Source: Candidatus Iainarchaeum sp. (GTDB lineage Archaea; Iainarchaeota; Iainarchaeia; Iainarchaeales; DTGL01). From it: a stretch of DNA of 15,165 nt. The stretch is taken from positions 1 through 15,165 of the forward strand of contig JAVYME010000027.1 in the NCBI GenBank assembly GCA_038736825.1, given 5' to 3'. Below, in pieces: positions 1-8,883 of the stretch (positions within the stretch are counted from its first letter, which is position 1; every line of letters starts with the position of its first letter). The notes beneath the pieces are model-generated. The model searched no databases. It saw nothing but the letters and a program-made list of their open reading frames with translations, and had not been told where the DNA came from. The translations under genes were made by a program, and so were the position numbers.

Positions 1-938
1 GGTTAAGGGATTTTTTTGCCACTATTTTTTTTGTTTCGCTTGGATTGCAGATAAGTTTTGCTTTCACTAGCCTTCCTTTTGCAGTGTTGCTGTTAATGTT
101 TTTGGTATTGTATTTTGTCAATCCAGCACTGTACTTTTTAATTTCAATTCTTTTTGGGCTTAAGCCGAAAAGCGCTCTTTTTGTGGGGCTCGCTTTAGGG
201 CAGGCTAGCGAGTTTTCCTTCATTTTGGCAAACCAAGGCTTCAAGTTGGGCCAGCTTTCCCCTGAAATCTTTTCTGCCAGCATTCTTGCCATAACAATTT
301 CAATGGCTTCAACTCCCTATTTAATGGAGAAAAGCGATTCTTTGTATTCCTTTTTTTCAAAGAGTGTAAAGCCCTTTTTGCCAAAAAAGCTTGGATCAAA
401 ACTGGGGCGAAGGGAAAAAAGCCTTGACTTTCTTCCGAAAAGTTTTTGTGAAGATCACTTGGTAATTGTTGGTTCTGGGCTTTTGGGAAAACAGCTGATT
501 TCTGCTCTGAAAAAAAGGCACAAGATTGTGGTTGTAGACCATGATGCAGAAATAGCTCAAGCCAATGCGAGCAAGGTTCCAACAATTTATGGAGAGGCGG
601 AAAGCGATGAAATTCTTGAAAAGGCTTGTCCTTCAAAGGCTAAAGCAGTTATTTCAACCATTCCAGACACAAAAGCAGCCTGTCTTGTCATAAAAAAAGC
701 CAAAAAGGCAAACCCTAAAATTTTGGCAATTGCAAAAGCAAAAAATTTTACTAGCGCTCTAGAATTGTATAAAAGCGGAGCCGATTATGTGTTGTTGCCA
801 GAGGTTGTGAGCGCTAATGTTTTATTAAAACAGCTTTCCGGCTTCCTTGAAACCGGAAACATTAGCAGAATATCCAACCTTGAAGACGATTTCAGAAAAT
901 ATTTGGAAGAAAAAGCCAGAGAAGAGCAAGGAGCTTAA
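1..938 (+). CDS. Cation:proton antiporter (CPA2/Kef-type), 3' part: last TM helices plus TrkA-N/RCK domain; 5' end cut by window edge
   Basis: Frame 3 is open from base 3 (LRDFFATIFFVSLGLQISF...), so the TTG at 45 in the ORF track is not the real start. Hydrophobic helices are followed by a Rossmann GxGxxG segment (HLVIVGSGLLGKQLISALKKRHKIVVVDHD) typical of TrkA-N/RCK. TAA stop at 936-938. Confidence 0.85.
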   Translation, partial: LRDFFATIFFVSLGLQISFAFTSLPFAVLLLMFLVLYFVNPALYFLISILFGLKPKSALFVGLALGQASEFSFILANQGFKLGQLSPEIFSASILAITISMASTPYLMEKSDSLYSFFSKSVKPFLPKKLGSKLGRREKSLDFLPKSFCEDHLVIVGSGLLGKQLISALKKRHKIVVVDHDAEIAQANASKVPTIYGEAESDEILEKACPSKAKAVISTIPDTKAACLVIKKAKKANPKILAIAKAKNFTSALELYKSGADYVLLPEVVSANVLLKQLSGFLETGNISRISNLEDDFRKYLEEKAREEQGA

Positions 939-1955: not shown

Positions 1956-3167
1956 TTGAGAAAGCTTGGTGTTTTCTTGTCTGAAAAACTGAAAAAGAAC
2001 GTTTTGGTTTTAGGGCTTGTCAGCCTTTTGACTGACATTTCCAGCGAAATGATTTTTTCCATACTGCCGGTTTTCATGTCAAGCGTTTTAATGCTTGACA
2101 AGGCAGTTATTGGCTTGATTGAAGGAATAGCCGAATCAAGTGCAAGTGTTTTCAAGCTTTTGTCAGCAAAAGCGGAAAAATTTTTAGGCAAAAAGAAAAC
2201 CGTCATACTGTTTGGATACGGGCTTTCAACTGTTGTAAAACCATTGTTCGCTTTTGCAACAAACTGGTGGCAGCTTCTCTTGTTTCGGTTTGGGGACAGA
2301 GCCGGAAAAGGCTTGAGGGGCCCTGCAAGAGATTCCATAATTGCTGACTCTTCCGCGCAGCAAACAAGAGGTTTTTCCTTTGGATTCCACAGAACAATGG
2401 ACACCATTGGTGCAATAATAGGTCCCTTGCTTGCTTTTTTAATCCTCTCCCTTCTCAGCCAAAACTTCAGGCTTGTTTTTTTGTTATCCTTCATTCCGGC
2501 ATTTTTAGCAGTTTTAATAATATTGTTTTTTGTCAAAGAGGAAAAAAACCCAGTCAAAGATAACATTAAAGAAAAAACACTCCAAAACACGGAATACAAG
2601 TGGTTCCTTTTATCAGCCTCTGTTTTTGCACTGGGAAACCTGAGCTTTGCATTCCTCTTAATAAGAATACAAGATCTTGGCCTGCCAGTTGCCTTTATCC
2701 CGTTAGCCTACCTTTTTTTCAACATCTCTTATGCTTTCTTTGCAATTCCTTTCGGAAAACTGGCTGACAAAATAGGCAGAATTAAAGCCCTTGCCTTGTC
2801 CTTTGCCCTGTTTTCGCTCACATTCACTGGCTTTGCCCTGGCTAAAGAGGCATGGATTGCAATAATTTTACTAGCAGTATACGGAATTGCCACAGCTGGC
2901 ACTGAAACAGTGCAAAGAACAATTGCCTCGGAAATCGTTCCAAAACAAAAAAGAACTGGTTCTCTTGGAACCTATCAAGGAATAACTGGACTGCTATTGC
3001 TGCCTGCAAGCATTATAGCCGGAATCCTTTGGAGTTTAGCTGGCGCTGAAACCGCATTTGCCTTCAGCGCCATAACAAGCATTTCAGCGCTTGCGCCCCT
3101 TTACAAAATACAAAAAAATTTCCTGAAACCGCAAAGAAGAACAACCAAAAAGGAAAAAAAGGTTTGA
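1956..3167 (+). CDS. MFS transporter (12-TM type)
   Basis: Multiple hydrophobic helices, the N-terminal LGLVSLLTDISSEMIFSILPVF segment, and an MFS loop motif GDRAGKGLRGPARDS. The start is uncertain. TTG 1956 has no SD, whereas in-frame TTG 1977 is preceded by GGTG (1968-1971) with a 5-nt spacer. Confidence 0.85.
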   Translation: MRKLGVFLSEKLKKNVLVLGLVSLLTDISSEMIFSILPVFMSSVLMLDKAVIGLIEGIAESSASVFKLLSAKAEKFLGKKKTVILFGYGLSTVVKPLFAFATNWWQLLLFRFGDRAGKGLRGPARDSIIADSSAQQTRGFSFGFHRTMDTIGAIIGPLLAFLILSLLSQNFRLVFLLSFIPAFLAVLIILFFVKEEKNPVKDNIKEKTLQNTEYKWFLLSASVFALGNLSFAFLLIRIQDLGLPVAFIPLAYLFFNISYAFFAIPFGKLADKIGRIKALALSFALFSLTFTGFALAKEAWIAIILLAVYGIATAGTETVQRTIASEIVPKQKRTGSLGTYQGITGLLLLPASIIAGILWSLAGAETAFAFSAITSISALAPLYKIQKNFLKPQRRTTKKEKKV

Positions 3168-3208
3168 ATGGAAATAAAATGCGCTTGCTAAAAACAAATA
3201 TTTGGGCA

Positions 3209-3358
3209 TTAATCTTTCTTTGATTTTGGAAAGCCATTGCGGTCTATCACAAACTTGTGGTTTGGATCGCGCGTGCAAACATAAACTCCGTTGGATGTCT
3301 CCTTCAAAGGCACAGTAATAAAGTTTTTTCCATAACATTGTGGGCAAAAATACGCCAT
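3209..3358 (-). CDS. Small zinc-ribbon-like protein, 49 aa (below the ORF-track size cutoff)
   Basis: Hand translation gives MAYFCPQCYGKNFITVPLKETSNGVYVCTRDPNHKFVIDRNGFPKSKKD, with a TAA stop at 3209-3211. It has CxxC plus CxxxxxH ligand spacing. GAGGTG (3365-3370) sits 6 nt upstream of the ATG at 3356-3358. This ORF competes with the 92-aa track ORF in another frame, which overlaps the MFS 3' end. Confidence 0.5.
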   Translation of the reverse strand: MAYFCPQCYGKNFITVPLKETSNGVYVCTRDPNHKFVIDRNGFPKSKKD

Positions 3359-3398
3359 TCATACCACCTCGCTCTTACAAAAGTAGAAGCTATCAGCC

Positions 3399-3422
3399 AA
3401 AAAGGCGCTTTAGCTGTAAAGC
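3399..3422 (-). terminator. Hairpin plus T5 on the minus strand (GCUUUA-CAGC-UAAAGC then GCC-UUUUU); possible end of the NTase operon transcript
   Basis: 6-bp stem 3407-3412/3417-3422 with a 4-nt loop. A5 on the plus strand at 3399-3403 is T5 on the minus strand. A second GGCG/CGCC hairpin lies at 3425-3440. Confidence 0.35.
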
Positions 3423-3601
3423 AAGGCGAGCTTCACCGCCATTTAACCAATACTACAAATCTGCTTAAAAAACAATTCATAACGAGGCAAATAGCGCCGA
3501 AAAGTTCAATGCCTTTTCCTTTCTAGGGAAATCGGCCAAGTTTGTTCCAACAGTATGTGCTGTGAGGTTTTATTTAAGGATTTTGATTTGATCCTGTATG
3601 A

Positions 3602-4117
3602 TCAGAATAGTTCTTCGAGGACTTTTTCTAGGTTGTTTTTGTATTTTTCCTCGCTGCCGACCACTTCGACTTTTTCAGCCCTTTTCCTGACTTGTTCTTT
3701 TGAGAGCTTTGCTTTTTTTATGCATGCTTGGATGTCCTGCCAGTCCCTTTCACTAAGCCTTGCAATCTTTGAGACAATGATGTCCAAGGGCGACAATGCA
3801 AGCAATTCAATATACTCGAATTTTTTCCGGACAGGAATCGCTTTTTCAGCGTAATCTTCCGGCAATTGCTGCGAGAAGACCAGGCCGTTTGAGAAAAGGT
3901 CTATTCTGTAACCTGAAGCGAGGTTCTTGATTGCTTTTGCAATTGTTTCGCGGTCTTTTCCGCTTACATCCAAGTCGATGTCGATTGTCGAGTTTTTCAG
4001 GCCTAACAAGGTCATTGCTGTTCCGCCTACCGCGACAACCCTGATTTTCCTGTTCAGTTCCTTGTCCAGTTCTTCCAATAACTCGAACAATTTTTGTTTT
4101 CCGATTTCAGATGACAT
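3602..4117 (-). CDS. Minimal nucleotidyltransferase (Pol-beta superfamily; DUF2204/DUF6036-like), 171 aa
   Basis: VAVGGTAMTLLGLKNSTIDIDLDV matches GG-x13-DxD, followed by a later acidic strand GYRIDLF and a helical tail SPLDIIVSKIARLSERDWQDIQ. GAGGT (4124-4128) lies 6 nt before the ATG at 4115-4117. The gene overlaps the upstream gene by 11 nt. Confidence 0.75.
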   Translation of the reverse strand: MSSEIGKQKLFELLEELDKELNRKIRVVAVGGTAMTLLGLKNSTIDIDLDVSGKDRETIAKAIKNLASGYRIDLFSNGLVFSQQLPEDYAEKAIPVRKKFEYIELLALSPLDIIVSKIARLSERDWQDIQACIKKAKLSKEQVRKRAEKVEVVGSEEKYKNNLEKVLEELF

Positions 4118-5234
4118 TATACAACCTCATTTTTTCCTTTAAAGCATTCAAGTCAACTTTTTTGCCTTCAATGCCGCTTTTTTTTATTAGTTTGATTGCT
4201 TTTTCTGTTTCCTTTAATGGCTTGATTTTGTTGAATGCTTCAAGTAATCCGAGCAGTTCTGGCAGTTTTCCATATCTTGCGCACATGAATGCCAGCAAGC
4301 GGTAATTGGGCTTCCTGCCGGCTTTGTTGTCGAAAGCTTTTGAAATAATTACCGGAATCGCTTCCTTTCTCCTTGCATCGCCTTGCAATAATATTGCCAT
4401 GGCAATGCTTTCAATTGCAATGTTTTCGCTTGACTGCAGTTTTTCCCCGAATTCAGTGTAACCAAACCGGCTAAGGTTGTAGAAAAGCTCTTTTTCGCTA
4501 GCTTTCGCTGGCTTGAACTCCTCACTTTCCGCCTTTACAGTGATTCCTTGGTCCATTGCGCGCCTTATTGAAAGCCAGAAAGCCTGCGGCGAATAAAACG
4601 CTGTTTTGTCTGAAAGCATTTCCTTCAACGCGTTTTTGCCCTGTTCTTTCAATAGTTCGAAGAACTCGTTTTCCCTTAAAACCAAAAAATCCGCTTTCAG
4701 GTTATGTCTTTTCTGAAGCAATTGCATTGTAGAATAAATGAGCTCTATTTCGTTTTGGATTGCCTTTTCGCCTTCCTCTTTTGAATCCCATTGTTTTTCT
4801 GTTTCAGTCAAAAGAGGCTCCCTTAAAAGGAACAAAAATTCGGCCTTGTTCAACTTTGCGTTTCTCGCAGGCCTCATGATTGAAATGGATTCAATGAAAT
4901 AAAACCCGCGAGAAAAAGTGCTTTCCATTGCAAACAAAAACGCCTGCATTTCTGGGTTTTTTTCCAAAAACTTCCTTTTTTTGGCAAACTCCATCTCGCT
5001 CAACAAGTCAAAGGTTGCAGGGTTTTCAAGGTTAAGGCTTACAAGCGAGGCCTTTCCTGCAATCTCTAGGTTCAATATTTTGTTTCGCGCGAGTTCCTGC
5101 GTCTTCTCGTAAATGTTCTTATAAGTGGCTTTGCCTGATCTTTCCTTTACTCTCTCTTTGAGGCTGCTTATGGAGGTATTGTTGCCCAGGCTGCTTGCAA
5201 GTGCATCCAGTATTCTGAAATTCAATTCATCCAT
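4107..5234 (-). CDS. 375-aa protein: N-terminal winged helix-turn-helix, central degenerate NTase-like region, helical C-terminal domain; function unknown
   Basis: The long ORF has protein-like composition. The N-terminus MDELNFRILDALASS...SISSLKERV...YKNIYEKTQELARNKILNLEIAGKASLVSLNL reads as a wHTH. GGTG lies 5 nt upstream of the ATG at 5232-5234. TGA stop at 4107-4109. Confidence 0.75.
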   Translation of the reverse strand: MDELNFRILDALASSLGNNTSISSLKERVKERSGKATYKNIYEKTQELARNKILNLEIAGKASLVSLNLENPATFDLLSEMEFAKKRKFLEKNPEMQAFLFAMESTFSRGFYFIESISIMRPARNAKLNKAEFLFLLREPLLTETEKQWDSKEEGEKAIQNEIELIYSTMQLLQKRHNLKADFLVLRENEFFELLKEQGKNALKEMLSDKTAFYSPQAFWLSIRRAMDQGITVKAESEEFKPAKASEKELFYNLSRFGYTEFGEKLQSSENIAIESIAMAILLQGDARRKEAIPVIISKAFDNKAGRKPNYRLLAFMCARYGKLPELLGLLEAFNKIKPLKETEKAIKLIKKSGIEGKKVDLNALKEKMRLYNVI

Positions 5235-5246
5235 AAAAACACCAAT

Positions 5247-5286
5247 TATATCATTAAAGATATAATATTATATCTTTAAGGATATA
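5247..5286. promoter_or_regulatory. Palindromic operator-like element in the promoter region of the wHTH/NTase operon
   Basis: Perfect 26-nt palindrome TTAAAGATATAAT|ATTATATCTTTAA at 5254-5279. The arms extend imperfectly to 5247-5286 with one mismatched pair. It lies 20-45 nt upstream of the ATG at 5234 and is embedded in TATA-like sequence. Confidence 0.55.
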
Positions 5287-5416
5287 TTTAAAAAAGAATC
5301 TTTTAAATAAACCCGCAAAGCTTTGGAGTTGCCAAAGTTTAAAATTAGGGCATGCAAAATATTGCTTGTGTTTTTACCCTTTAGTTCACTTGCCTTTCTC
5401 GCCGCTGTTCAGCCAG

Positions 5417-5668
5417 TTAAGGAAGGACTTCAAGAAGAGCTTTTCTAGGTCTTTCCTTGCAAACTCGCCCCCTCCAGTCTTTTTTTAGCCTTCTTATTAT
5501 CGTGCACGGGCTGGTGGAGTTCCTTATCCCCCTAGCTTTGCTTAGTCCGCAGAGAAATTGAAGTGATTGTATTGCCGTACGAGTTTTCAGTTTTTTTGCA
5601 GAACTGTTTTCGGTTTTAACGCGCTGAGCTGTATCTTCAAGCGTTTTGCCAAATTCATGCAGTTTTTT
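5417..5668 (-). pseudogene. Start-less 83-codon open frame resembling an HTH (transposase/resolvase N-terminal-like) remnant
   Basis: Hand translation gives KKLHEFGKTLEDTAQRVKTENSSAKKLKTRTAIQSLQFLCGLSKARGIRNSTSPCTIIRRLKKDWRGRVCKERPRKALLEVLP*. The frame has no ATG, GTG or TTG. An ATG at 5656-5658 in another frame runs 23 codons and stops just after an A7 run (5591-5597). No catalytic domain follows. Confidence 0.3.
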
Positions 5669-5733
5669 TCACAGCCCTGCCTTCCTAAACCGAAGCACTT
5701 TTAAAAAGGCGAGGTAGCGATCCCCGAATTCCA

Positions 5734-5850
5734 TGCACGGGAGCGGATTCGAACCGCTGAACGCACTAAGCGGCCAGCTGTTTTCAGCCGAAGCCTGTGC
5801 AGGCCGAAGCCTCCTAAAGCTGGTGGGTTTGGCCACTTCCCTACCCGTGC
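5734..5850 (-). tRNA. tRNA-Leu (anticodon UAG) with a 33-nt intron at the canonical 37/38 position; no encoded CCA
   Basis: Hand fold: acceptor GCACGGG/CCCGTGC plus discriminator A. D arm GGG-AAGTGGCCAAA-CCC. Anticodon stem CCAGC/GCTGG with loop TT-TAG-G[intron]A. Long variable arm CCGCTTAGTGCGTTC (class II tRNA). T arm AGCGG-TTCGAAT-CCGCT. Confidence 0.85.
5780..5812 (-). other. tRNA intron (AGGCUUCGGCCUGCACAGGCUUCGGCUGAAAAC)
   Basis: This is the sequence between G37 and A38 of the anticodon loop. Loop UUU can pair with intron AAA. The 3-nt bulges GG|A and AC|A fit a relaxed bulge-helix-bulge arrangement. Confidence 0.7.
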
Positions 5851-5873
5851 GATGTAAATAATATGTGCGCTCT

Positions 5874-5889
5874 GGTTTTTTTAAAATAG
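5874..5889 (-). promoter_or_regulatory. TATA-like box upstream of tRNA-Leu
   Basis: The minus strand reads CTATTTTAAAAAAACC, centred about 30 nt upstream of the mature tRNA 5' end. Confidence 0.35.
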
Positions 5890-5901
5890 TTTTTTTTGTG
5901 T

Positions 5902-6555
5902 TTATTCTTTGGATGCAATTATTCTGCCAATTATTTCTGCAGCTTCATCGCAGGAGTCTGCTATTGCTTCCAGTTTTTTTACTGATTCGTGCCAGATATA
6001 GTATTGTTGCAGGGAAAGACTCAGGCTTGAATGCACAAAGTCTTCGCAGTGTTTTCTCCTGATTTCGTCAACTTTTTCTTCTGTCACATGGACTTCGTTC
6101 AATTGCTGTAATAGTTCTTCTGAAATGCAAGGCATGCTTTCCAGGACTTTTGCCAGAGCTTCCAGTGTTTCAACACTGGCTTTGCATATTTCCTGTAAGC
6201 CCTTGTTCAAGCTGTCCGGCAATCTTATTCCGCGAGACATTCTTGCTCTGTATGCAGTGGCTTCTATTGCCTTTGAGGTTTTGGAAAGCGCTTGGTTTAA
6301 TAAAAGCAAGTCCTGTCTGCTTTGAGAGTGACCGACATTTAGGATTTTTTCATTTAGTTTGGCGCTGTTTTTGCTGCACTCCTTTTGAATTTCAAGGGTT
6401 TTTTGGACAAGACTGTCGTGCTTTTTTCCCCTTAACTCCAAAATGGCTTTTTCCAAGAGTGCAGCGCTTTCAACCATTTTTTTTAGGTTTGCAAGCATTT
6501 CCTTGTAGATTTCGTCCTCTTGCATGTTGAAATAGAAAATTCTGCCAACCCTCAT
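5902..6555 (-). CDS. PhoU-like / DUF47-family helical protein (two three-helix repeats)
   Basis: All-helical sequence with repeated E..D-type segments (EIQKECSKNSAKLNEKIL; VHVTEEKVDEIRRKHCEDF). The C-terminal KKLEAIADSCDEAAEIIGRIIASKE resembles the DUF47/PhoU end motif. The ATG at 6553-6555 overlaps the upstream gene's TGA (ATGA). Confidence 0.6.
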   Translation of the reverse strand: MRVGRIFYFNMQEDEIYKEMLANLKKMVESAALLEKAILELRGKKHDSLVQKTLEIQKECSKNSAKLNEKILNVGHSQSRQDLLLLNQALSKTSKAIEATAYRARMSRGIRLPDSLNKGLQEICKASVETLEALAKVLESMPCISEELLQQLNEVHVTEEKVDEIRRKHCEDFVHSSLSLSLQQYYIWHESVKKLEAIADSCDEAAEIIGRIIASKE

Positions 6556-7751
6556 TTTTTTCTCCCACCATTCTTAAAGTCAGATTTCTTTAAATGGGTT
6601 TCCATTTCCCTTTTGACTTTTTTTAGTTGTATTGCCAGCAGGGGAGGCACAGCCAGTGTTGTCACAAACACCATCGCGGTTATTGCTGCAACAATTTCAA
6701 GGCCAAGCCCGTACGATGCACCTATGCTGGCAATCACGAGAGCAACCTCTGCTCTTGGAGTCATTGCAATGCCAATTGCAAGCGATTCATTCTTGGAAAA
6801 GCCGGAATAAAGCGCCGCCAGGCCACAACCAGCTGTTTTGCCAATAAAAGCCAATATAATCAATCCAATGGTGAAGGCAAGCATTGCATGAGAGAAAAGG
6901 GTTTCAAGCTGTAAGGCCATTCCTGCGGTAACAAAAAAGACGGGAATGAAAAATGATTCTCCGAAAACAGAAACGCTTTCAAGAAGGTCTTTGGAATAAC
7001 GGGATTGGCCGAGCACGAGGCCCCCAAGGAAAGCCCCTACCACCAGTTCAAGACCGATTTCTTTTGCCACAAGACTGTAACAAAGCGCTACAATTACACC
7101 CAGCAAGAGCAGGTTTTCAGGGCGAAAAGAAAACCTTTTTGCAAGGCGCTGGAAGGCTTTCATTACAATTGAAAGGGAAAATGCAAAAAGCAAGAGTGAG
7201 GCTATTACAAGAAACACTGTTTCACTCAAATGAACTTCCCCGCTTTTCACAATTCCGCCAAGAACTGCCAAGGCGATTATGCCGTAAATGTCATCTATTA
7301 CGGCGGCTCCCATTATGGTTGTGCCCATCCTTGTTCTAAGCATTTCTTTTTCGCTTAAAATTTCAGCATTTATGCCTATGGATGTTGCTATGAGGGCAGT
7401 TCCAGCAAAGAGCGCTTCAAACTGAGAAAAACCCATTAATAATGCAAAGCCATAACCCAAAAAGAAAGGCAGTAAAGCGCCTGCAGTTGTTATTACAAGG
7501 CTTTGCCTTCCAAGGCGCTTGACTTCTTCAAAATCAAGCGCAAGACCAGAGGAAAACAATAAAATTATCACGCCGATTTGGGAAATTAGCGCTATTGGTT
7601 GCAAAACCACTGAAAAGAACAGGTTTCCAAGTATCAGGCCTGCCAGCAGTTCGCCCAAAACAAGCGGTTGATCGAATTTCTTGCAGGCAAGCCTTCCAGC
7701 AAGTGAAGCCACTAAAACTACTAAAAGGAATTCAAGTGATGCTTCAACCAT
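6552..7751 (-). CDS. Cation:proton antiporter (CPA2, Na+/H+ exchanger family), membrane domain only, no RCK domain
   Basis: About 12 hydrophobic helices with a typical N-terminus LLVVLVASLAGRLACKKFDQPLVLGELLAGLILG. The ATG at 7749-7751 (MVEASLEF...) is preferred over the track's TTG at 7817, whose extra 22 residues are not protein-like. Confidence 0.85.
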   Translation of the reverse strand: MVEASLEFLLVVLVASLAGRLACKKFDQPLVLGELLAGLILGNLFFSVVLQPIALISQIGVIILLFSSGLALDFEEVKRLGRQSLVITTAGALLPFFLGYGFALLMGFSQFEALFAGTALIATSIGINAEILSEKEMLRTRMGTTIMGAAVIDDIYGIIALAVLGGIVKSGEVHLSETVFLVIASLLLFAFSLSIVMKAFQRLAKRFSFRPENLLLLGVIVALCYSLVAKEIGLELVVGAFLGGLVLGQSRYSKDLLESVSVFGESFFIPVFFVTAGMALQLETLFSHAMLAFTIGLIILAFIGKTAGCGLAALYSGFSKNESLAIGIAMTPRAEVALVIASIGASYGLGLEIVAAITAMVFVTTLAVPPLLAIQLKKVKREMETHLKKSDFKNGGRKK

Positions 7752-7851
7752 AAAGGTCAGTTCAAACAAAAAACAGGGAAAGGTTTTTACGCTGTTCTTT
7801 GGCTGCAAGCGCACCAATAGATTTTTTTATTTGTGGCAAGTATTTTTTATT

Positions 7852-8883
7852 ATGGCGAGAATAATTAATCCAAGGCGCACTTCCTTTGATTTGCCAGAAG
7901 ATTTCAAGCCTTACTCTGACAAGTATTTCCTTCGCTCTAAAGAACTCCTTGAACGAGAGGGATTGAATCCCTGCGTTAAATACCAGGTTTTTTTTCAAAA
8001 AGGACCTGGAATTGTGTGCGGCATAGATGAAGCGATTGCAATAATCCGCAAATATGCTGGTCCAGAGATTAAAATTCGCGCTTTATATGACGGCGAACCA
8101 TATTCTGCAAAGGAAACAGTAATGGAAATAGAGGGCAAAGTGCAAGAATTGATTGCTTTGGAAACAATGTATTTGGGCGTTTTAAGCGCTGGCACAACCA
8201 TTGCTTCATCAATAAACGAAATTTGTTCTATTGCAAAAGGAAAAGAAGTGTATTATTTTGGTGCAAGGCATTGGCGTTTTGATTCTGACAAAGAACTATC
8301 CTATGCTGCATGGGTTGGCGGTGCAAGCGGAGTGAGCACTGACATTGGAGCGTCTGCTTTTGGAGAAAAAGGAATGGGCACAATCCCACACGCCCTCGTT
8401 CTGGTTTTTGAAGACACTGTTAAAACAGCGGAAAAATTCGAACAACAGTTTGGAAGACAATCAAGAGTGATTGCACTAATAGACACTTTTAACAAAGAAA
8501 TAACAGATTCGCTTCGCACTGCAAAAGCCTTGGGTGAAAAATTGCACGGAGTGCGAATTGACACTTGCTGGGAAAACACCGGCGAAGGAACAAGAAAAGG
8601 AAAAGGCGTTACAGTGGAATTAGCCAGAAAAGTGCGCAAGGCATTGAACGAAAACGGGTTTGAGCACGTTAAAATTTTCCTCTCCTCTGGCTTCAATGCA
8701 AAAAAAACCAGAGAATTCATGAAAGCAGAAAAAAAACACGGCAGATTTTTTGACGCCATTGGCACAGGCTCTGTTTTTGACTTCCGGTTCGCCACTGCAG
8801 ACATTGTTGAAAAAAACGGAAAACCCTGCTTTAAAACAGGCAGGCCTCCAAAACCAAACCAAAGACTGCACTTGGTTGAATGA
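7852..8883 (+). CDS. pncB: Nicotinate phosphoribosyltransferase, archaeal (Thermoplasma-type) NAPRTase
   Basis: Motifs GTIPHAL, LIDTF, VRIDT, IFLSSGF, IGTGS and DIVEKNGKPCFKTGR align with the type II PRTase/NAPRTase family. The ATG at 7852 (MARIINPRR) is preferred, because the track's 57 upstream codons overlap the divergent antiporter gene. Confidence 0.85.
   Translation: MARIINPRRTSFDLPEDFKPYSDKYFLRSKELLEREGLNPCVKYQVFFQKGPGIVCGIDEAIAIIRKYAGPEIKIRALYDGEPYSAKETVMEIEGKVQELIALETMYLGVLSAGTTIASSINEICSIAKGKEVYYFGARHWRFDSDKELSYAAWVGGASGVSTDIGASAFGEKGMGTIPHALVLVFEDTVKTAEKFEQQFGRQSRVIALIDTFNKEITDSLRTAKALGEKLHGVRIDTCWENTGEGTRKGKGVTVELARKVRKALNENGFEHVKIFLSSGFNAKKTREFMKAEKKHGRFFDAIGTGSVFDFRFATADIVEKNGKPCFKTGRPPKPNQRLHLVE

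Follow-up and report, generated by a model that had tools for sequence, protein, structure and literature searches.

The subject of this analysis is a pair of overlapping genes on a contig of 15,165 nt (the whole stretch of DNA that was analysed, referred to below as the window) from a metagenome-assembled genome of Candidatus Diapherotrites (Iainarchaeia, DPANN). The first gene encodes a protein of 375 aa, here called the partner, and the second encodes a minimal nucleotidyltransferase (NTase) of the Pfam family DUF6036. The database records of the two proteins read QXK06_04740 'hypothetical protein' and 'DUF6036 family nucleotidyltransferase'. A first-pass annotation of the window, made from the sequence alone, had described two minus-strand genes with an 11-nt overlap, a GAGGT Shine-Dalgarno sequence for the NTase inside the upstream gene and a perfect palindrome at the start of the operon, and all three were found in place (Table 1). 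The last partner codons, AAT GTC ATC TGA, with the stop at 4107, include the NTase ATG at 4117. The overlap is predicted to couple the translation of the partner to that of the NTase. The last residues of the partner in Table 1 are conserved, and this C-terminus therefore doubles as the ribosome-binding site of the NTase.

Table 1. Features of the gene pair and its surroundings in the window (ORF, open reading frame; AF2, AlphaFold2; positions in nt unless residues are given)
Feature	Position	Strand	Basis or remark
Partner gene, 375 aa	4107..5234	(-)	ORF
Partner, winged helix	residues about 1-70		AF2 model
Partner, two long helices	residues 72-107		AF2 model
Partner, alpha/beta region	residues about 114-228		AF2 model
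Partner, helical C-terminal region	residues about 240-375		AF2 model
DUF6036 minimal NTase gene, 171 aa	3602..4117	(-)	ORF
11-nt overlap ATGTCATCTGA, partner stop and NTase start	4107..4117	(-)	sequence read-out
Shine-Dalgarno GAGGT of the NTase, 6 nt ahead of the ATG	4124..4128	(-)	inside partner C-terminal codons K-M-R-L-Y-N
Operator-like inverted repeat, 23+23-nt arms, 91% complementary	5244..5289		sequence
tRNA gene with an intron, 500 nt upstream of the module	5734..5850	(-)	Rfam RF00005; ARAGORN -i

The pair is found at about 140 archaeal loci, in DPANN, Nitrososphaeria, Bathyarchaeia and other lineages. Two scans were made, one from each gene. The scan that started from the partner used one genome per species and gave 64 loci, all of them archaeal (64/64), from Iainarchaeia, Micrarchaeota, Aenigmatarchaeota, Bathyarchaeia, many Nitrososphaeria, Methanomethylicota and Euryarchaeota. 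Sixty-two of these loci have room downstream of the partner, and an intact DUF6036 gene directly follows it in 50 of the 62. The scan that started from the NTase used metagenomes and gave 80 loci, 75 of which could be assessed, and the partner lies directly upstream of the NTase in all 75. By these counts the two genes stay together across archaeal and DPANN genomes; the first-pass annotation had named their failure to co-occur as a refutation of its reading. The most divergent partners, with 24-25% identity, still adjoin a DUF6036 gene. The overlap recurs as well. In the non-redundant partner-first set it measures 11 nt in 39 loci, 14 nt in 13 and 17 nt in 3, and the metagenome loci mostly show the same pattern of 11, 14 and 17 nt. 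The junction ATGAGGyTnTAyAATGyCAyTTGA, with GAGG embedded in it, is conserved across loci.

The region upstream of the partner also shows a recurring feature. The core of the inverted repeat in the window is a perfect 26-nt palindrome, TTAAAGATATAATATTATATCTTTAA (5254-5279), which lies 19 nt ahead of the partner ATG, and the repeat as a whole contains four (A/T)GATATAAT-type half-sites. For a leaderless transcript, the palindrome would occupy the position of the archaeal TATA box and B recognition element. The 120 nt ahead of the partner were searched for inverted repeats at the 64 loci and compared with shuffled sequence. The best repeat has a mean arm of 8.5 nt versus 5.3 nt in the shuffles, and the arms reach 8 nt or more in 72% of the loci versus 4% of the shuffles. 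The repeat mostly ends 10-45 nt ahead of the partner ATG, and the half-sites ACTATAAT, ACCATAAT and AGATATAAT co-vary on both arms between loci. Such a pattern is the expected trace of a dimeric winged-helix autorepressor on an archaeal promoter, to which the partner would bind. The pair, its overlap and the upstream inverted repeat are beyond chance and recur in more than 100 independent archaeal loci.

The NTase scores 67.5 bits against the DUF6036 model (PF19502), for which the cut-off is 23.6 bits (E 1.5e-18, residues 9-161 on model positions 2-149 of 164), and the model is matched by all 49 aligned NTase homologues. Full-text literature searches found no published studies of DUF6036, PF19502 or the related DUF2204; DUF6036 is a named but functionally uncharacterised NTase family. 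The NTase signature noticed in the first pass, GG-x13-DIDLD with a later YRIDLF, is complete, as G31-G32, D46-I-D48-L-D50 and Y70-R-I-D73-L-F are all present. Among the 49 homologues G31, G32, D46 and D73 are invariant, and D48 and T44 are at least 90% conserved. An alignment of 12 DUF6036 sequences from DPANN, Thaumarchaeota, GC-rich archaea, bacterial plasmids and one cyanophage has G31, G32, T44, D46, D48, D73, F81, D88, D112, K117, R120, D125, D128 and R146 as its invariant residues. The AF2 model of the NTase (predicted local distance difference test, pLDDT, 96) consists of a Pol-beta core and a helical lobe.

These residues can be compared with those of known NTase toxins. The toxicity of AbiEii needs four motifs, namely hG[GS], a basic residue followed by DhD, K-x6-R, and a late Asp (PMC3985639). 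The NTase has G31-G32 for the first, K41...D46-I-D48 for the second, K117-x6-R124 (plus R120) for the third, and D125 and D128 for the fourth, all of them invariant or at least 90% conserved. The spacing of K117-x6-R124 is that of AbiEii K173-R180, and the correspondence for motifs III and IV is one of position and spacing only, not of significant alignment. In the MenT toxins a Ser or Thr, in MenT1 T39-x-D41 and in MenT3 S78-x-D80, is the site of auto-phosphorylation induced by the antitoxin (PMC11375011). T44-x-D46 of the NTase reproduces this phospho-acceptor arrangement, as far as sequence can tell, and K137 and D152 in the helical lobe of MenT1 resemble K117 and D125/D128. All catalytic residues of the NTase are intact, and because its invariant residues map onto the AbiEii motifs and T44-x-D46 reproduces the MenT arrangement, the enzyme looks catalytically competent and of a miniature AbiEii/MenT kind. 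It is not a member of DUF1814.

The relationship to these toxins is a distant one in sequence. The Pfam AbiEii model (DUF1814, PF08843) gives the NTase 18.3 bits (E 0.0024), below the cut-off of 22.5, and the PADLOC AbiEii model matches only the N-terminal catalytic core (residues 9-93, E 1.5e-5). There is no significant sequence match to MenT, and the MNT-type Pfam families NTP_transf_2 and Polbeta are not matched at E<=1. The nearest solved structures found with Foldseek are ANT(2'')-Ia, TM1012, MenT1 and LnuA, with template modelling (TM) scores of 0.46-0.59. MenT1 (8an4_A) aligns with the NTase model at E 1.5e-2 and probability 0.99, with TM-scores of 0.51/0.46 and a root-mean-square deviation (rmsd) of 6.3 A, and it is itself a small NTase toxin of about 195 aa. 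The first-pass annotation had described the NTase as far shorter than the DUF1814-type AbiEii. This is correct, since AbiEii proteins have roughly 240-300 aa, but with MenT1 in the comparison the small size is less unusual than it had seemed.

The partner was modelled with a pLDDT of 93.3 and a predicted TM-score of 0.91. Residues 1-70 can be superposed at 1.4-2 A rmsd on PDB winged helices of the MarR, Fur and ArsR types, so that the N-terminal winged helix of about 70 aa, first recognised from the sequence, now stands in a confident model. The first pass could name no family for the rest of the protein, and the searches agree with it. No Pfam, NCBIfam or PADLOC family beyond the winged helix was found for 56 aligned members and ten divergent members of the partner family, and 15 of the 56 have a weak winged-helix match to the HVO_A0114 model. 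The AbiEi models (Pfam AbiEi_1-4 and PADLOC AbiEi) are matched at E<=0.1 by none of the 56, and likewise by none of the ten divergent members. Searches against PDB sequences, with the single sequence and with the 56-sequence profile, returned noise only. Foldseek searches of the full model against the PDB and BFVD returned almost only winged-helix matches (residues 1-100), none with E<0.017. In a protein search, a 21-sequence profile covering the last 276 residues of the partner found family members only and no annotated remote relative, and a tblastn search of plasmids with the partner gave no match. Residues 100-375, as modelled, are structurally unplaced. Neither protein was placed in a characterised pair by the profile and structure searches.

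The partner family is nevertheless well defined by its own members. It has 114 close homologues, and a profile search gathered 511 clusters at 50% identity with E<=1e-3, the best 150 of which are family members throughout. The invariant residues are Y38, G60, N125, W220, G258, Y259, E275, R288 and K299, and the C-terminal domain carries the conserved motifs NLxRFGYxEFG and IE...DARRxEAIPxxLAK. The second-ranked BFVD match is a long alignment (335 columns, probability 0.57, low confidence) to a phage protein named 'polymerase nucleotidyl transferase domain', which gives a hint that the body of the partner may be NTase-like. The proposal that the partner is a dead paralogue of the NTase gained no support from a profile-profile comparison of the two, which was not significant (probability 0.3%).

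Other subfamilies of DUF6036 show which part of the partner goes with the enzyme. A Nanoarchaeial NTase (L155, 2354-3495) is preceded by a protein of 216 aa, residues 62-170 of which align with the C-terminal domain of the partner (hhalign probability 96.8%, E 2.5e-10). Two further subfamilies have the NTase first and a protein of 212-252 aa second (L158, 3001-4361, and L159, 322-1549), and the N-terminus of these second proteins has the same GY/IE/R..AIP pattern (74%, E 2.8e-5 in one case, weak in the other). DUF6036 is also found on the Cupriavidus plasmid pRK1-2 (L160, 2610-3513), on an Acidovorax plasmid (L161, 2608-3744) and in the Dolichospermum phage Dfl-JY45 (L162, 2615-3501). Each of these genes is preceded by a tightly linked ORF of 96-97 aa with no Pfam family, and the two such ORFs that were compared, those of Cupriavidus and the phage, show no kinship to the archaeal partner. 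Among the sequences covered, DUF6036 always belongs to a unit of two genes. What tracks the NTase is the partner's C-terminal domain rather than its winged helix, which suggests that this domain and the enzyme deal with each other protein to protein. The Cupriavidus plasmid has an IscB RNA-guided endonuclease gene and a DUF6884 gene just past DUF6036.

An alternative reading reverses the roles of the two proteins. In the type VII pair HepT/MntA a small NTase is reported to be the antitoxin and to polyadenylylate a Tyr of the toxin (PMC7641770). By this precedent the NTase of the present pair would be the antidote, nucleotidylating the partner, for example at Tyr259 in the FGY loop, and the partner would be the harmful component. 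The invariant G258-Y259, E275, R288 and K299 of the C-terminal domain would suit such a target, and the occurrence of the same domain with other DUF6036 subfamilies in other gene orders fits a relation of substrate and enzyme. HEPN/MNT modules also resemble the pair in that they are two-gene modules with a minimal Pol-beta NTase and are abundant in archaea. However, their NTase is the upstream antitoxin and its partner is a HEPN RNase with the Rx4-6H motif, while here the NTase is downstream and the partner has a winged helix. As the first pass had noted, the only His of the partner is in KRHNL (H177); it has no Arg 5-7 residues ahead of it. The Rx4-6H motif is absent, there is no invariant His in the partner family, and models of HEPN and nuclease proteins are unmatched. 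On the side of the NTase, MNT families are unmatched, and the structures nearest in fold are MenT1, ANT and Lnu, not MNT. Membership in HEPN/MNT was ruled out by the missing Rx4-6H motif, the gene order and the NTase family. The partner, moreover, is first in order, bears the DNA-binding domain and sits behind the operator. A reversal of roles is judged quite unlikely on these points, and the losses described next, in which 10 of 62 genomes keep an intact partner but not the NTase, are unexpected of a toxin deprived of its antidote.

The two genes are not lost equally. In 10 of the 62 partner-first genomes the NTase is absent or reduced to less than 60% of its length beside a full-length partner. 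Three of the ten loci have no trace of the NTase (L008, L052 and L057), six have remnants of 41-87 aa (L042, L062, L067, L038, L035, which is the cultured Nitrosotalea sp. TS, and L014) and one has a remnant of 96 aa (L058). Two frameshifted cases, which may be sequencing errors, were left out of this count. At an additional locus (L004) an insertion sequence (IS) element adjoins an NTase remnant of 52 aa. The partners of all 11 loci retain nine of the nine invariant residues, and orphan partners score against the profile as paired ones do (465 vs 460 bits). In the opposite direction, 50 NTase-first loci have an intact NTase with at least 1.2 kb upstream, and the partner is lost or below 60% in none of them; in four of the 50 the coverage of the partner profile is slightly short at one end. 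The difference between the loss of the NTase (10/62) and the loss of the partner (0/50) gives p = 0.002 in Fisher's test. An NTase that does harm in the partner's absence would leave such a pattern, which is hard to reconcile with the partner being an NTase-dependent toxin. As the two sets stem from different collections, the pattern is taken as an indication and not as proof. That the losses fall on the NTase is a further difference from HEPN/MNT modules.

The partner's closest relative, with 79% identity, is among the orphans. It belongs to another Ca. Iainarchaeum genome (L008, JAPLVS010000034.1, 6001-9694), in which similarity to the window stops about 37 nt into the NTase. An ATPase of the AAA_14/DUF4143 type and a protein of 321 aa of no recognised kind stand there in place of the NTase; an AAA_14/DUF4143 gene is also found near the module at a second locus (L001).

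The one-sided loss also bears on the proposal that the two proteins form a two-subunit enzyme, or that the partner is a transcription factor tuned by reversible modification through the NTase, with no toxicity in either case. Stoichiometric coupling, the co-evolution of the two genes and the C-terminal domain common to the subfamilies are in keeping with this proposal, as is the weak hint of an NTase-like body in the partner (BFVD rank 2, probability 0.57). However, a catalytic subunit that is lost in 16% of genomes while the other is fully conserved is a misfit for an obligate enzyme, and the patchy, mobile distribution with occurrence on plasmids and in a phage fits selfish or defence modules better. 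We consider this proposal very unlikely.

We lean towards the reading that the pair is a self-repressed, translationally coupled module of a toxin-antitoxin kind, akin to AbiE and MenAT, in which the NTase is the toxin and the partner is both repressor and antidote. The loci exhibit conserved pairing, coupling, a co-varying operator, intact catalytic motifs, one-sided loss and variable placement. From these features we infer toxicity, a target, neutralisation, direct contact of the two proteins and a mechanism involving phosphorylation, along the following lines. The partner would bind the array of palindromic half-sites over the promoter, probably as a dimer through its winged helix, and the operon would be repressed. 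Translational coupling would fix the ratio of the two products. The 171-aa enzyme, active and of the Pol-beta type, would be the harmful component when unchecked. By analogy with MenT it would most likely add nucleotides to RNA, for example at the 3' ends of tRNA or of other RNAs. The C-terminal domain of the partner would neutralise the NTase by binding it, by inducing self-phosphorylation of the invariant Thr44, or by both; Thr44 sits two residues ahead of the catalytic Asp46.

The first-pass annotation had held that the pair follows the logic of AbiE and yet fits neither that canon nor the HEPN/MNT one, and this description is borne out. The families compared were AbiEi/AbiEii, the type IV toxin-antitoxin or abortive infection systems (COG5340 plus DUF1814), with PygAT from Pyrococcus yayanosii as an archaeal example. 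As in AbiE, the two genes form a bicistron in which they overlap and the regulator precedes the NTase (PMC3985639, PMC11375011), the first protein has an N-terminal winged helix and a C-terminal domain, inverted repeats lie in the promoter, and the systems occur in archaea and on mobile DNA. In AbiEi, regulation belongs to the N-terminal domain and neutralisation to the C-terminal one, and the partner would parallel that split. There are also differences. The NTase misses the AbiEii cut-off and is smaller, and the partner has 375 aa with three regions past the winged helix and matches no AbiEi model. As for HEPN/MNT, the partner lacks the HEPN motif. The operator has adjacent half-sites, while that of AbiE has two inverted repeats 27 nt apart. 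As for MenAT, MenA1 is small and has no DNA-binding role, while the partner is a large winged-helix protein. Thus the logic is familiar from AbiE and MenAT, but both protein families are undescribed in that role. Of the two labels first given to the pair, toxin-antitoxin-like or defence-like, the former is supported by these results and the latter finds no direct support in them. A 2026 survey of archaeal immunity reported AbiE as enriched in DPANN, with detection through the AbiEii module; in Pfam, the AbiEii model behind that detection misses the NTase.

Several observations weigh against a toxin-antitoxin module. The NTase falls below the Pfam cut-off for AbiEii, as noted, and only 1 of the 49 family members matches AbiEii at E<=0.01. 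The partner is far above the typical size of an antitoxin and two thirds of it has no recognisable relative, so it may do more than repress and neutralise. The surroundings in the window are housekeeping genes (transporters, NAD salvage) and not a defence island. The comparison of losses draws on two different collections, and some of the truncations could be assembly errors. An orphan partner could be covered by a second copy of the NTase elsewhere in the genome, or it could act as a regulator itself. Finally, ANT(2'')-Ia and LnuA, two NTases that act on small molecules, have the highest TM-scores (0.54-0.59), a little above that of MenT1.

This last point leads to a further explanation in which there is no toxin or antitoxin. 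The NTase would modify a small molecule, for resistance or detoxification in the manner of ANT(2'')-Ia or Lnu, and the partner would be a dedicated ligand-sensing regulator upstream of it. ANT(2'')-Ia (0.54-0.59), LnuA (0.55) and the uncharacterised TM1012 share the size and the two-lobed fold of the NTase, the layout of the partner recalls ligand-responsive regulators of the TrmB type (5bqt, with poor superposition), and the neighbours of the module are housekeeping and transport genes. The loss of such an enzyme would also be tolerated. However, these proteins have 12-14% identity to the NTase, those of known function have antibiotics as substrates, and they do not form an overlapping pair with a DNA-binding protein. 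A strict overlap of 11, 14 or 17 nt with an embedded Shine-Dalgarno sequence across phyla is unusual for a regulator and its target. The C-terminal domain accompanies DUF6036 in the 216-aa protein and in the NTase-first pairs, which points to a relation between proteins and not to that of a regulator and a promoter, and the invariant T-x-D-x-D matches the phospho-acceptor arrangement of MenT. The module moves as a unit, and orphan regulators that keep all invariant residues would regulate nothing. For these reasons we regard a small-molecule NTase with its regulator as unlikely.

A more specific version of the toxin-antitoxin module can be put forward as a speculation that is improbable as it stands. 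The partner would be more than an analogue of AbiEi and represent a new kind of antidote, with a winged helix joined to a catalytically dead NTase-like body, and the 'FGY...IE...ARRxEAIP' domain would be the universal cognate of DUF6036. The NTase would be controlled by mimicry or heterodimerisation that triggers self-phosphorylation of Thr44, or Tyr259 would be nucleotidylated so that binding to the promoter reports the activity of the enzyme. If this is true, it would represent a new logic of neutralisation and a new protein family present in DPANN and in the ammonia-oxidising archaea, which are ecologically dominant.

NTase toxins such as AbiEii and MenT are an emerging class. Their targets at the acceptor end of tRNA and their control by antitoxin-induced self-phosphorylation have been elucidated only of late, with nearly all of this work done in bacteria. 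The module would add to this class a minimal NTase toxin of 170 aa with all catalytic and phospho-acceptor residues, together with a large, unclassified DNA-binding partner. It has a wide distribution among archaea, and its carriers, which are ecologically important and genetically hard to work with, include Nitrosopumilus, Nitrosotalea, Nitrososphaera, Bathyarchaeia and DPANN lineages with tiny genomes. With this reading, DUF6036 and the unnamed partner family (about 500 clusters) would gain a testable function, and studies of archaeal autoregulation would gain a defined operator sequence. Defence and toxin-antitoxin finders would gain a profile that is absent at present from PADLOC and from the finders based on Pfam.

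The placement of the module was compared between genomes. The tRNA gene upstream of it in the window was found by Rfam in E-value mode (44.2 bits, cut-off 29) and by ARAGORN with introns allowed, and it was missed by default ARAGORN and by Rfam in gathering mode on the whole window. The isotype given by ARAGORN, Pro(agg) with a long extra arm, is doubtful. The genes around the module in the window are of a housekeeping kind. They encode a TrkA/Na-H exchanger fragment, an MFS transporter, a PhoU_div protein, a Na/H exchanger, a nicotinate phosphoribosyltransferase (NAPRT)-like protein, an isochorismatase, a CARDB surface protein and ABC transporters. A related Iainarchaeon (L072, metagenome Ga0190313_1001742; 2881-4516, 5129-8513) has the same tRNA-PhoU_div-Na/H exchanger-NAPRT neighbours with the module inverted, and its far flank is unrelated to the window. 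The tRNA gene marks the border between the conserved neighbourhood and the variable side, and the comparison suggests a hot spot of insertion or inversion on the 3' side of this tRNA. The window and the genome with the closest partner relative (L008) have nothing in common but the partner gene, their flanks being different, and at another locus (L003) the module is surrounded by several transposases. Judged from these contexts, the module moves between genomic positions. The first-pass annotation had placed it in a tRNA-flanking accessory islet. This is supported in part. The tRNA flank and the variable placement hold, but no att-like direct repeats of the tRNA 3' end, integrase or anomaly in GC content were found around the module, and the neighbours are housekeeping genes.

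A few other features were seen near the module in the window and at related loci. A fluoride riboswitch aptamer (RF01734, 40.2 bits, cut-off 34) lies at 3377-3449(-), 153 nt past the NTase stop. No fluoride-related gene follows the riboswitch; the sole downstream ORF, 3084-3362(-), encodes 92 aa with no Pfam match and runs into the 3' end of the MFS transporter gene, 1956-3167(+), which is convergent with it. In Micrarchaeia (L001/L016, JAVZHX010000002.1, 8047-9220) a 296-aa TrmB-like winged-helix gene lies about 2 kb past the module and is followed by a short ORF with a weak match to the DUF6036 profile (E 3e-6), and the two may be a second, different pair of a winged-helix protein and an NTase. 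At two loci of the Bathyarchaeia type (L031, 5101-5775(-), and L126, 5035-5709(-)) the partner profile has a second, weak match (E about 9e-11) on the opposite strand, about 0.5 kb past the NTase, which could be a partial or divergent extra copy of the partner.

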